This document shows positions 1 through 5,386 of a stretch of 5,386 bases of DNA, piece after piece. The stretch lies in sequence record EF380025.1. The stretch is one strand, 5' to 3'. The notes under the pieces were generated by a model. The model had not been told where the DNA came from and did not search any database. It was given only the letters and a program-made list of their open reading frames with translations. The stretch comes from Escherichia phage phiX174. Numbering within the stretch: the stretch's first letter is position 1; the number at the start of each line of letters is the position of its first letter. A program made the translations under genes and the position numbers.

Positions 1-51
1 GAGTTTTATCGCTTCCATGACGCAGAAGTTAACACTTTCGGATATTTCTGA
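1..51 (+). CDS. B: Internal scaffolding protein B, 3' terminal portion (wraps from 5075..5386); stop TGA at 49-51
   Basis: Frame continues GCA(5384-5386) then EFYRFHDAEVNTFGYF and TGA at 49-51; the stop overlaps the K start (TGATG). Confidence 0.93.
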   Translation, partial: EFYRFHDAEVNTFGYF

Positions 52-136
52 TGAGTCGAAAAATTATCTTGATAAAGCAGGAATTACTACTGCTTGTTTA
101 CGAATTAAATCGAAGTGGACTGCTGGCGGAAAATGA
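1..136 (+). CDS. A: Replication initiation protein A, 3' terminal portion (wraps from 3981..5386); stop TGA at 134-136
   Basis: Frame continues from codon 5385-5386-1 (CAG) with no stop until TGA at 134-136; the end is ...KSKWTAGGK. The stop overlaps the C start (ATGA at 133-136). Confidence 0.93.
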   Translation, partial: SFIASMTQKLTLSDISDESKNYLDKAGITTACLRIKSKWTAGGK

Positions 137-221
137 GAAAATTCGACCTATCCTTGCGCAGCTCGAGAAGCTCTTACTTTGCGACCTTTCGTCATCAACT
201 AACGATTCTGTCAAAAACTGA
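51..221 (+). CDS. K: Protein K (small nonessential membrane-associated protein), overlapping the end of A and the start of C
   Basis: ATG at 51, TGA at 219-221; translation MSRKIILIKQELLLLVYELNRSGLLAENEKIRPILAQLEKLLLCDLSSSTNDSVKN (56 aa), near-identical to phiX174 K. Confidence 0.9.
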   Translation: MSRKIILIKQELLLLVYELNRSGLLAENEKIRPILAQLEKLLLCDLSSSTNDSVKN

Positions 222-369
222 CGCGTTGGATGAGGAGAAGTGGCTTAATATGCTTGGCACGTTCGTCAAGGACTGGTTTAGATATGAGTCACATTTTGTT
301 CATGGTAGAGATTCTCTTGTTGACATTTTAAAAGAGCGTGGATTACTATCTGAGTCCGATGCTGTTTAA
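133..369 (+). CDS. C: Protein C (DNA packaging / ssDNA synthesis switch); 78 aa here, ending at TAA 367-369, which is 8 codons short of the canonical 86-aa C
   Basis: ATG at 133 (ATGA overlap with the A stop); ORF track 115..369 is in the same frame; translation MRKFDLSLRSSRSSYFATFRHQLTILSKTDALDEEKWLNMLGTFVKDWFRYESHFVHGRDSLVDILKERGLLSESDAV then TAA. Canonical phiX174 C continues QPLIGKKS to TGA at 391-393. Confidence 0.88.
   Translation: MRKFDLSLRSSRSSYFATFRHQLTILSKTDALDEEKWLNMLGTFVKDWFRYESHFVHGRDSLVDILKERGLLSESDAV
320..349 (+). promoter_or_regulatory. Promoter pD (sigma70-like), inside gene C upstream of D
   Basis: TTGACA at 320-325, 18-nt spacer, TACTAT at 344-349; predicted start near 356-358, consistent with the D mRNA start I recall for phiX174. 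Confidence 0.6.
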
Positions 370-389
370 CTATTAATAGGTAAGAAATC

Positions 390-848
390 ATGAGTCAAGT
401 TACTGAACAATCCGTACGTTTCCAGACCGCTTTGGCCTCTATTAAGCTCATTCAGGCTTCTGCCGTTTTGGATTTAACCGAAGATGATTTCGATTTTCTG
501 ACGAGTAACAAAGTTTGGATTGCTACTGACCGTTCTCGTGCTCGTCGCTGCGTTGAGGCTTGCGTTTATGGTACACTGGACTTTGTGGGATACCCTCGCT
601 TTCCTGCTCCTGTTGAGTTTATTGCTGCCGTCATTGCTTATTATGTTCATCCCGTTAACATTCAAACGGCCTGTCTCATCATGGAAGGCGCTGAATTTAC
701 GGAAAACATTATTAATTGCGTCGAGCGTCCGGTTAAAGCCGCTGAATTGTTCGCGTTTACCTTGCGTGTACGCGCAGGAAATACTGACGTTCTTACTGAC
801 GCAGAAGAAAACGTGCGTCAAAAATTACGTGCAGAAGGAGTGATGTAA
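390..848 (+). CDS. D: External scaffolding protein D
   Basis: ORF track 390..848, 152 aa; MSQVTEQSVRFQTALASIKLIQ... matches phiX174 D almost exactly (one difference recalled, Gly to Cys in NIINCVERP); AGGT Shine-Dalgarno-like motif at 378-381. Confidence 0.96.
   Translation: MSQVTEQSVRFQTALASIKLIQASAVLDLTEDDFDFLTSNKVWIATDRSRARRCVEACVYGTLDFVGYPRFPAPVEFIAAVIAYYVHPVNIQTACLIMEGAEFTENIINCVERPVKAAELFAFTLRVRAGNTDVLTDAEENVRQKLRAEGVM
568..843 (+). CDS. E: Lysis protein E (MraY inhibitor), fully embedded in D in the +1 frame
   Basis: ATG at 568 preceded by GAGG (555-558); 91 aa MVHWTLWDTLAFLLLLSLLLPSLLIMFIPLTFKRPVSSWKALNLRKTLLIASSVRLKPLNCSRLPCVYAQEILTFLLTQKKTCVKNYVQKE; stop TGA 841-843. The ORF track entry 520..843 is the same frame extended upstream to a TTG. 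The N-terminal transmembrane segment and Pro21 are intact. Confidence 0.93.
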   Translation: MVHWTLWDTLAFLLLLSLLLPSLLIMFIPLTFKRPVSSWKALNLRKTLLIASSVRLKPLNCSRLPCVYAQEILTFLLTQKKTCVKNYVQKE

Positions 849-2930: not shown

Positions 2931-3917
2931 ATGTTTGGTGCTATTGCTGGCGGTATTGCTTCTGCTCTTGCTGGTGGCGCCATGTCTAAATTGTTTGGAG
3001 GCGGTCAAAAAGCCGCCTCCGGTGGCATTCAAGGTGATGTGCTTGCTACCGATAACAATACTGTAGGCATGGGTGATGCTGGTATTAAATCTGCCATTCA
3101 AGGTTCTAATGTTCCTAACCATGATGAGGCCGCCCCTAATTTTGTTTCTGGTGCTATGGCTAAAGCTGGTAAAGGACATCTTGAAGGTACGTTGCAGGCT
3201 GTCACTTCTGCCGTTTCTGATAAGTTGCTTGATTTGGTTGGACTTGGTGGCAAGTCTGCCGTTGATAAAGGAAAGGATACTCGTGATTATCTTGCTGCTG
3301 CATTTCCTGAGCTTAATGCTTGGGAGCGTGCTGGTGCTAATGCTTCTTCTGCTGGTATGGTTGACGCCGGATTTGAGAATCAAAAAGAGCTTACTAAAAT
3401 GCAACTGGACAATCAGAAAGAGATTGCCGAGATGCAAAATGAGACTCAAAAAGAGATTGCTGGCATTCAGTCGGCGACTTCACGCCAGAATACGAAAGAC
3501 CAGGTATATGCACAAAATGAGATGCTTGCTTATCAACAGAAGGAGTCTACTGCTCGCGTTGCGTCTATTATGGAAAACACCAATCTTTCCAAGCAACAGC
3601 AGGTTTCCGAGATTATGCGCCAAATGCTTACTCAAGCTCAAACGGCTGGTCAGTATTTTACCAATGACCAAATCAAAGAAATGACTCGCAAGGTTAGTGC
3701 TGAGGTTGACTTAGTTCATCAGCAAACGCAGAATCAGCGGTATGGCTCTTCTCATATTGGCGCTACTGCAAAGGATATTTCTAATGTCGTCACTGATGCT
3801 GCTTCTGGTGTGGTTGATATTTTTCATGGTATTGATAAAGCTGTTGCCGATACTTGGAACAATTTCTGGAAAGACGGTAAAGCTGATGGTATTGGCTCTA
3901 ATTTGTCTAGGAAATAA
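2931..3917 (+). CDS. H: Minor spike / DNA pilot protein H
   Basis: ORF track 2931..3917, 328 aa; GAGG at 2921-2924; Gly/Ala-rich N-terminus [16 protein letters not shown] and the Q-rich coiled-coil region match phiX174 H. Confidence 0.96.
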
Positions 3918-3980: not shown

Positions 3981-5386
3981 ATGGTTCGTTCTTATTACCC
4001 TTCTGAATGTCATGCTGATTATTTTGACTTTGAGCGTATCGAGGCTCTTAAACCTGCTATTGAGGCTTGTGGCATTTCTACTCTTTCTCAATCCCCAATG
4101 CTTGGTTTCCATAAGCAGATGGATAACCGCATCAAGCTCTTGGAAGAGATTCTGTCTTTTCGTATGCAGGGCGTTGAGTTCGATAATGGTGATATGTATG
4201 TTGACGGTCATAAGGCTGCTTCTGACGTTCGTGATGAGTTTGTATCTGTTACTGAGAAGTTAATGGATGAATTGGCACAATGCTACAATGTGCTCCCCCA
4301 ACTTGATATTAATAACACTATAGACCACCGCCCCGAAGGGGATGAAAAATGGTTTTTAGAGAACGAGAAGACGGTTACGCAGTTTTGCCGCAAGCTGGTT
4401 GCTGAACGCCCTCTTAAGGATATTCGCGATGAGTATAATTACCCCAAAAAGAAAGGTATTAAGGATGAGTGTTCAAGATTGCTGGAGGCCTCCACTATGA
4501 AATCGCGTAGAGGCTTTACTATTCAGCGTTTGATGAATGCAATGCGACAGGCTCATGCTGATGGTTGGTTTATCGTTTTTGACACTCTCACGTTGGCTGA
4601 CGATCGATTAGAGGCGTTTTATGATAATCCCAATGCTTTGCGTGACTATTTTCGTGATATTGGTCGTATGGTTCTTGCTGCCGAGGGTCGTAAGGCTAAT
4701 GATTCACACGCCGACTGCTATCAGTATTTTTGTGTGCCTGAGTATGGTACAGCTAATGGCCGTCTTCATTTCCATGCGGTGCACTTTATGCGGACACTTC
4801 CTACGGGTAGCGTTGACCCTAATTTTGGTCGTCGGGTACGCAATCGCCGCCAGTTAAATAGCTTGCAAAATACGTGGCCTTATGGTTACAGTATGCCCAT
4901 CGCAGTTCGCTACACGCAGGACGCTTTTTCACGTTCTGGTTGGTTGTGGCCTGTTGATGCTAAAGGTGAGCCGCTTAAAGCTACCAGTTATATGGCTGTT
5001 GGTTTCTATGTGGCTAAATACGTTAACAAAAAGTCAGATATGGACCTTGCTGCTAAAGGTCTAGGAGCTAAAGAATGGAACAACTCACTAAAAACCAAGC
5101 TGTCGCTACTTCCCAAGAAGCTGTTCAGAATCAGAATGAGCCGCAACTTCGGGATGAAAATGCTTACAATGACAAATCTGTCCATGGAGTGCTTAATCCA
5201 ACTTACCAAGCTGGGTTACGACGCGACGTCGTTCAACCAGATATTGAAGCAGAACGCAAAAAGAGAGATGAGATTGAGGCTGGGAAAAGTTACTGTAGCC
5301 GACGTTTTGGCGGCGCAACCTGTGACGACAAATCTGCTCAAATTTATGCGCGCTTCGATAAAAATGATTGGCGTATCCAACCTGCA
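3981..5386 (+). CDS. A: Replication initiation protein A (HUH rolling-circle endonuclease), 5' portion; continues across the circular junction to 1..136 (513 aa in total)
   Basis: ATG at 3981 preceded by GGAGG (3969-3973). I translated the frame codon by codon to 5386 with no stop. HUH-type motif RLHFHAVHF and the paired catalytic tyrosines in YVAKYVNKK are present. The origin lies inside the gene. Missing from the ORF track only because it has no stop inside the linear window. Confidence 0.95.
   Translation, partial: MVRSYYPSECHADYFDFERIEALKPAIEACGISTLSQSPMLGFHKQMDNRIKLLEEILSFRMQGVEFDNGDMYVDGHKAASDVRDEFVSVTEKLMDELAQCYNVLPQLDINNTIDHRPEGDEKWFLENEKTVTQFCRKLVAERPLKDIRDEYNYPKKKGIKDECSRLLEASTMKSRRGFTIQRLMNAMRQAHADGWFIVFDTLTLADDRLEAFYDNPNALRDYFRDIGRMVLAAEGRKANDSHADCYQYFCVPEYGTANGRLHFHAVHFMRTLPTGSVDPNFGRRVRNRRQLNSLQNTWPYGYSMPIAVRYTQDAFSRSGWLWPVDAKGEPLKATSYMAVGFYVAKYVNKKSDMDLAAKGLGAKEWNNSLKTKLSLLPKKLFRIRMSRNFGMKMLTMTNLSMECLIQLTKLGYDATSFNQILKQNAKREMRLRLGKVTVADVLAAQPVTTNLLKFMRASIKMIGVSNL
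4299..4328 (+). other. Viral (+) strand origin of rolling-circle replication (30-nt A-protein recognition and nick site; nick between G4305 and A4306)
   Basis: Exact match to the canonical origin CAACTTGATATTAATAACACTATAGACCAC located inside gene A. Confidence 0.9.
4497..5386 (+). CDS. A*: Protein A* (internal in-frame start within A; continues across the junction to 1..136, 341 aa in total)
   Basis: In-frame ATG at 4497 (tcc act ATG aaa tcg) in the A reading frame, at the canonical phiX174 A* position. Assigned by established knowledge rather than an independent sequence signal. Confidence 0.8.
   Translation, partial: MKSRRGFTIQRLMNAMRQAHADGWFIVFDTLTLADDRLEAFYDNPNALRDYFRDIGRMVLAAEGRKANDSHADCYQYFCVPEYGTANGRLHFHAVHFMRTLPTGSVDPNFGRRVRNRRQLNSLQNTWPYGYSMPIAVRYTQDAFSRSGWLWPVDAKGEPLKATSYMAVGFYVAKYVNKKSDMDLAAKGLGAKEWNNSLKTKLSLLPKKLFRIRMSRNFGMKMLTMTNLSMECLIQLTKLGYDATSFNQILKQNAKREMRLRLGKVTVADVLAAQPVTTNLLKFMRASIKMIGVSNL
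4863..4892 (+). promoter_or_regulatory. Promoter pB candidate inside gene A upstream of B
   Basis: TTGCAA at 4863-4868, 18-nt spacer, TACAGT at 4887-4892. A weak match; placed here partly because phiX174 is known to have a B promoter inside A in this vicinity. Confidence 0.3.
5075..5386 (+). CDS. B: Internal scaffolding protein B, 5' portion; embedded in gene A in a different frame; continues across the junction to 1..51 (120 aa in total)
   Basis: ATG at 5075 preceded by AGGAG (5063-5067); frame open to 5386; translation MEQLTKNQAVATSQEAVQNQNEPQLRDENAYNDKSVHGVLNPTYQAGLRRDVVQPDIEAERKKRDEIEAGKSYCSRRFGGATCDDKSAQIYARFDKNDWRIQPA... matches phiX174 B. Confidence 0.95.
   Translation, partial: MEQLTKNQAVATSQEAVQNQNEPQLRDENAYNDKSVHGVLNPTYQAGLRRDVVQPDIEAERKKRDEIEAGKSYCSRRFGGATCDDKSAQIYARFDKNDWRIQPA

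Follow-up and report, generated by a model that had tools for sequence, protein, structure and literature searches.

Gene C and the C/D junction

The window analyzed here is the complete genome, 5,386 nt in length, of a phiX174 isolate (EF380025.1). The open reading frame list for this genome places gene C between an ATG at 133 and a TAA at 367-369, which gives a product of 78 amino acids as compared to 86 in the canonical gene. Gene C lies between A/K and D and the layout of K, C, and D agrees with that in the annotated records; the features of this stretch are listed in Table 1. Protein C mediates the change from stage II to stage III DNA synthesis, in which double-stranded replication gives way to single-stranded synthesis and packaging.

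Table 1. Features at and around the C/D junction of the isolate, with positions in the 5,386-nt window
Feature	Position	Strand	Basis	Details
Gene K	51-221	+	ORF list	
Truncated gene C (78 codons and TAA)	133..369	+	ORF list, sequence	ATGA 133-136 holds both the start ATG and the gene A stop, an overlap shared with the wild type
D promoter inside gene C	320..349	+	Consensus scan, 10/12 matches	TTGACA 320-325, 18-nt spacer, TACTAT 344-349
Ochre stop TAA	367..369	+	Comparison with NC_001422	Created by C367T: CAA (Gln79) to TAA, C Q79*
Former C codons 80-86	370..389	+	Comparison with NC_001422	Now an untranslated 20-nt C-D spacer with C371T and C373T
Gene D	390..848	+	Sequence, sibling-record annotation	Start intact; ATGA 390-393 kept, its TGA no longer the C stop

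The original prediction, made from the sequence alone, was that the first 78 residues are those of phiX174 C, and the 78-residue product was indeed 100% identical to canonical C over its length. A protein identical to it is present in NCBI as ABN49626.1 and under other accessions, named 'protein C'. Base-by-base comparison with NC_001422 confirmed the coordinates that had been given for the stop and the three T-for-C differences near the end of C, of which the one at 367 creates the stop, the one at 371 would be P80L, and the one at 373 would be synonymous at L81. Besides 367, the only other difference within the shortened gene is a C>T at 192 that is synonymous in C, and NC_001422 is matched without a difference from 374 up to and including the D ATG at 390, a stretch that takes in the D ribosome-binding region. 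The canonical stop-start overlap, in which C ends at TGA 391-393 over the D ATG at 390-392, was not found at this junction, where C ends at TAA 367-369; the predicted loss of the eight C-terminal codons, QPLIGKKS, together with the overlap of the C stop and the D start, therefore stands.

Over the whole genome there are 54 differences from NC_001422, 31 of which are C>T, and A>C and T>G transversions also occur. Positions 367, 371, and 373 form the single place in the genome where three differences fall within 7 nt. When the 54 differences were permuted with base matching, a cluster of this kind arose anywhere in the genome with P=0.07, and the clustering alone is therefore suggestive and not a strong signal. 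The cluster is there because one inherited change is joined by two changes that occurred on one later branch, as described below.

Origin of the isolate and of the stop codon

Records EF380009-EF380032 are the phiX174 genomes of Silander, Tenaillon and Chao (2007, PLoS Biol 5:e94, PMC1845161). In that study a phiX174 clone from B. Fane was taken through 100 transfers at 32°C with about 10^4 phage, which gave an ancestor of high fitness; low-fitness ancestors were derived by mutagenesis and the picking of small plaques, and the lines were propagated on an E. coli mutT host, with hydroxylamine at each transfer and with the bottleneck set at between 3 and 250 plaques (PMC1845161). C>T changes made up 89% of the substitutions in the population-size experiment, and the C stop is nowhere mentioned in the paper (Silander et al. 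2007, PMC1845161). The companion paper to Silander et al. 2007 gives E. coli C as the host.

The 367T allele was found in 23 of 23 sibling genomes from EF380009-32, including AP100 (EF380009), and in the same 23 records the GenBank CDS for C is 133..369. AP100 differs from NC_001422 at 11 positions, 367 among them, and ten of these 11 markers are present in the isolate studied here (367, 833, 1650, 1727, 2085, 2731, 2811, 3121, 3139, and 4518). The position of the remaining marker is 1460, where AP100 has G (F Q154E) and where the wild-type C is restored in the present genome and in isolate 3F90 by a G>C transversion on their common branch. In a neighbour-joining tree 3F90 (EF380024) is the sister of the present genome, and the two have 21 further derived changes in common, including 371T and 373T. 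Their sequences are 100% identical over 300-430 and have 42 differences elsewhere in the genome. In the phage collection the best whole-genome matches of the isolate were EF380024, EF380009, EF380032, and EF380031 at 99.1-99.2%. Parsimony over the series with the present genome gave 569 events, the total in the paper being 560, and the deposited AP100 sequence agrees with the paper (PMC1845161) both in the number of cytosines (1,151) and in the number of stop-changing sites among these (106). The share of C>T among the differences in the present genome agrees with the hydroxylamine spectrum of the paper. The hydroxylamine/mutT mutation spectrum and the position in the tree together identify this genome as a mutagenized isolate of the lineage of Silander et al. 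2007. Judging from the isolate names in accession order, which go from 3D90, 3E90, and 3F90 past this genome to 10E90 and 10F90, it may be the isolate '10D90'. The isolates 3F90, 100A90, and AP100 and the others in EF380009-32 have the same TAA at 367-369 and the same shortened C; 3F90 also has both 371T and 373T, and 100A90 carries 367T and 371T.

These comparisons bear on two of the explanations that the original prediction had put forward. The first is that the TAA is an error of sequencing, base calling, or assembly and that the true codon is CAA. All of the records are Sanger data from a single laboratory, so that any site with a systematic artefact would be wrong in every one of them. 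However, the siblings were sequenced separately and agree at this base, and the depositors deliberately annotated the shortened CDS. The neighbouring positions 362, 370, 371, and 373 vary among isolates, which shows that this stretch was read base by base, and the cytosine count given by the authors is that of the deposited AP100 with T at 367. An error of this kind is in our estimate very unlikely when all of this is taken together. The finding is real and ordinary: the 367T stop has been deposited, with C annotated short, in GenBank since 2007.

The second explanation is that the stop is a deleterious mutation that was fixed by drift or mutagenesis in this small-population line and adds to its low fitness. 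The lineage of the present genome is indeed one of low fitness and has numerous missense changes, and both Silander et al. 2007 (PMC1845161) and Wei et al. 2026 report that a nonsense mutation in phiX174 is almost always lethal. The stop, however, is older than all of the lines: it is already in the high-fitness AP100, and it was kept in lines that gained fitness, among them the N=100 and the N=250 lines, which came to the highest fitness. Drift in this line is thus not what fixed it. Only one nonsense change was counted among the 560 substitutions of the experiment (Silander et al. 2007, PMC1845161), and this appears to be the truncation of gene K in isolate 10A90. If the single nonsense substitution is indeed that of K, it fits with the C stop being older than the experiment. 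We therefore consider a deleterious stop fixed in this line to be quite improbable. In the record of 10A90 (EF380013) gene K is annotated as 51..161 rather than 51..221, an observation that fits with K being non-essential.

Occurrence of the 367T allele outside the series

When 50,697 phage records were searched by megablast with a 35-mer specific for 367T, all of the matches were EF3800xx records, and the same 35-mer had no match in 5,426 complete E. coli RefSeq genomes. Searches with degenerate exact patterns for 367T found none in IMG/VR, in the GTDB species genomes, or in JGI metagenomes, and the other phiX174 evolution series in GenBank lack 367T. It had also been considered in the original prediction that canonical phiX-clade genomes might carry the TAA as well, and when this was checked, C was found to be full length in S13, in WA4, in the Bull-lab ancestor AF176034, and in the Fane-lab 'PhiX_ancestral' genome GQ153915. 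From these full-length genes it follows that the stop arose in, or just before, the adaptation carried out in the Chao laboratory. The suggestion that the truncation is a natural variant was thus not borne out, 367T being confined to the EF380009-32 experimental series in the collections searched.

In the protein collection the exact 78-residue product is nevertheless listed under 85 index blocks, which could be taken as a wider spread of the truncated protein. This was rejected on the one non-NCBI contig that was examined, JGI Ga0371429_1076345. The contig has 5,527 nt, that is, 5,386 nt and a 141-nt terminal overlap; it is circular phiX whose linear end falls at 366, and the other end has CAA at 367. 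With the break at 366 gene callers emit a 78-residue 'protein C' that is a partial gene at a contig end, with no stop. In 67 of the blocks the product comes from short contigs and these are presumably contig-end partials of the same kind. Exact-protein look-ups overstate the spread of the truncated allele.

The C-terminal tail and the conserved domain

The truncated C matched the PF12025 Phage_C profile with 170.3 bits (cut-off 25) over residues 5-72 and profile positions 1-68 of 68, and full-length C gave the same result with 169.9 bits. Since the matches to C in a broad protein homology search were mainly phiX spike-in contigs and chimeric ORFs, the end of C was compared by tblastn against the phage collection. 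By this search the similarity of phiX C to the C proteins of G4-like and alpha3-like phages ends at residues 72-75, and six aligned C proteins are conserved up to about residue 73, beyond which their tails vary in sequence as well as in length. A single-sequence AlphaFold2 model of C, of low confidence (mean pLDDT 59), has three helices within residues 7-68 and coil from 69 to 86, with pLDDT <50 from residue 75. No solved structure of C was found, and a search of the literature on truncated C or on C-terminal function gave nothing specific. Compared to the wild-type C of phiX174 and S13 (86 amino acids, NP_040707), the present C has the same first 78 residues, the same position, the same overlap with the A stop, and the complete Phage_C domain; it differs from it in that QPLIGKKS is absent and in that the stop is 20 nt upstream of the D ATG with no ATGA overlap. 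The eight-residue tail is evidently non-conserved and dispensable, and the truncated C would be expected to be fully functional.

The relatives of phiX174 show how variable this junction is. The distance from the end of C to the D ATG is 1 nt in NC13, 42 nt in ID21, and 97 nt in Pectobacterium phage Mimer, and in ID18 C runs 14 nt into D. Going by these genomes, the 20-nt gap between C and D in the present phage falls within the natural range, from 97 nt upstream to 14 nt inside D, and the junction is not conserved, which agrees with the overlap being dispensable. In ID21 (alpha3-like), NC13 (G4-like), and Mimer, C ends near the end of the conserved domain and apart from D as it does in the present phage. 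The C proteins of Mimer and of the Bullavirinae ID21, NC13, and ID18 (also G4-like), however, are homologues of 39-69% identity and reflect natural divergence, whereas the end of the present C is due to one recent nonsense mutation.

The D promoter and leader

The promoter for D lies inside gene C (Table 1), and transcription from it, the start of which we take to be near 358, would put about 358-389, including positions 367, 371, and 373, in the 5' leader of the main D mRNA. With the main D transcript starting inside C, translation of D would be independent of ribosomes arriving from C. Wei et al. 2026 (bioRxiv 10.64898/2026.07.25.740675) place pD at C codons 63-75 and the D ribosome-binding site at C codons 82-83, and report that synonymous changes at these codons are harmful through the D promoter or the ribosome-binding site.

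An effect of the changes on RNA structure at the D start was rejected as an explanation after folding three stretches, 358-430, 358-460, and 340-420, from the wild type, AP100, 100A90, the present genome, and three other variants. The structures in the D leader were weak (-4.4 to -13 kcal/mol). For 358-430 the wild type, AP100, and the present genome were within 0.3 kcal/mol of one another in both minimum free energy and ensemble energy, and over all three stretches the wild type, AP100, 100A90, and the present genome differed by at most about 1 kcal/mol. There was no consistent change in the pairing of 376-392 in any of the three stretches. The folding thus predicts no change in access to the D start, and D expression is probably unchanged.

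A separate observation concerns the minus strand of 369-398. The 371T and 373T changes together convert ACCACT to ACTATT, which on the minus strand creates a -10-like AATAGT. This lies 18 nt from a TTGACT at 398-393, and the two form a putative antisense promoter-like site with 9 of 12 consensus positions that is not in the wild type.

Changes in the former C tail

Across the experiment, the tail cytosines at 370, 371, 373, and 389 had 1, 2, 2, and 0 independent C>T events, respectively. On average, each tail cytosine thus had 1.25 events, and each cytosine at a synonymous or intergenic site had 0.87 (Poisson P=0.27); the tail cytosines are therefore mutating at a neutral rate under a C>T mutagen. 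Three of the changes arose independently in large-population lines, 371T in 100A90, 373T in 250B55, and 370T in 250A55, and harmful changes rarely fix in such lines. It is probable from this that 371T and 373T are neutral. However, on the branch common with 3F90 two of the four tail cytosines were changed as compared to two of 308 neutral cytosines elsewhere (Fisher P=0.0007 in a post hoc comparison), and simple neutrality does not predict this. Since that branch was built by the picking of small plaques, 371T and 373T could be mildly harmful to D expression. The pair may stem from such a slight effect on D or from one mutagenic event that struck both sites together.

The changes in the tail also bear on whether read-through or suppression of the TAA continues to yield some full-length C, in which case the tail would not really be dispensable. 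The old frame is open from 370 to the TGA at 391-393, and a read-through product would end in xLLIGKKS. The host, E. coli C, is the standard non-suppressing host and read-through of ochre codons is normally very low. Moreover, the tail took the change at 371, which is missense if translated, and its sites evolve at the neutral rate. That full-length C is produced in this way is for these reasons highly improbable.

Another position of interest is 362, near the start of the D leader, where C362T (C A77V) had five independent origins, in 3C90, 10A90, 10E90, 10F90, and 250B55. Of the 394 variable sites in the series none changed more often, position 362 being tied for the highest count; the present genome retains C. 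The change at 362 may act on D expression instead of on C.

Tolerance of the stop in gene C

We think it very probable that the stop is a laboratory mutation that was inherited from AP100 and is tolerated, that C keeps its Phage_C domain without the dispensable tail, and that 371T and 373T are later hits. C367T, a single nonsense change, was fixed already in the laboratory-adapted AP100 and passed on to every descendant. The resulting 78-residue C keeps the whole domain and loses a variable tail whose DNA doubles as the ribosome-binding region of gene D. The function of C is evidently kept because the phage propagates: the 367T allele was carried through at least 90 transfers, and the ancestor of these phages was of high fitness. 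Translation of D would still begin at an initiation region of its own that has not changed, chiefly on mRNAs from the D promoter inside C, and the loss of the ATGA overlap would be tolerated because initiation of D is independent and unchanged. Codons 80-86 would be untranslated after the stop, and C371T and C373T would be later mutagen-type hits on the branch common with 3F90.

An explanation that we hold to be unlikely, though it has several observations in its favour, is that the stop was positively selected in the 100-transfer adaptation, a shorter C or an earlier C end improving either the timing of the switch from replication to packaging or the synthesis of D, and that the later changes at 362 and 370-373 further tune the leader of the D mRNA. 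AP100 differs from AF176034 at eight positions, and seven of these differences are protein-changing (C Q79*, F Q154E, F L243F, F A362V, G N113D, H P64H, and H S70N). The sole synonymous difference, at 4784, is a change of AF176034 itself relative to NC_001422, so that AP100 has no synonymous changes of its own, which is typical of adaptive sweeps. The fivefold recurrence at 362 points in the same direction, as does the report of Wei et al. 2026 that even synonymous changes in the promoter and ribosome-binding codons of C cut fitness. On the other hand, a neutral or slightly deleterious stop can hitch-hike with capsid mutations in an asexual sweep, and 367T did not arise in any of the other phiX174 evolution series in GenBank. 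The predicted accessibility of the D start site is unchanged by the RNA folding, and over the whole tree the tail sites evolve at a neutral rate. If selection did act, then a C end upstream of the D ribosome-binding site, or a shorter C, raised plate fitness at 32°C, and the C/D junction would be a tunable regulatory site instead of a fixed overlap.

A tolerated stop inherited from AP100 can be compared with what is reported for other nonsense changes in phiX174. According to Wei et al. [quoted passage not shown] Their assay in a wild-type background could disagree with our conclusion on the tolerance of gpC_Q79*. The classical amber and ochre mutants of phiX174 likewise have a single-base nonsense change in an essential gene, but they need a suppressor host. 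The C367T allele, unlike these, was maintained on E. coli C over hundreds of transfers with no help from a suppressor, and no suppressor would be needed because C367T removes only the dispensable tail. The value of the allele is modest: it is a ready-made natural experiment in which the last eight residues of C and the ATGA overlap of C and D are unneeded for vigorous growth.

Other differences from the reference

Protein-changing differences from the reference are also found elsewhere in the genome (192, 575-882, 1034-2145, 3121-3339, and 4399-5229). They include K P48S and D G110C, the latter together with E M50I, and further changes in E (R3H, S30L, T72I, and R89Q) and in J (K6Q, P12L, and A28V). 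There are 13 protein-changing differences in F and seven in H, and A, A*, and B have several each. Such numbers are expected for a low-fitness, mutagenized line with small bottlenecks and could be mistaken for natural variation. Since this genome is a mutagenized laboratory derivative, its departures are to be compared with AP100 and not with NC_001422.
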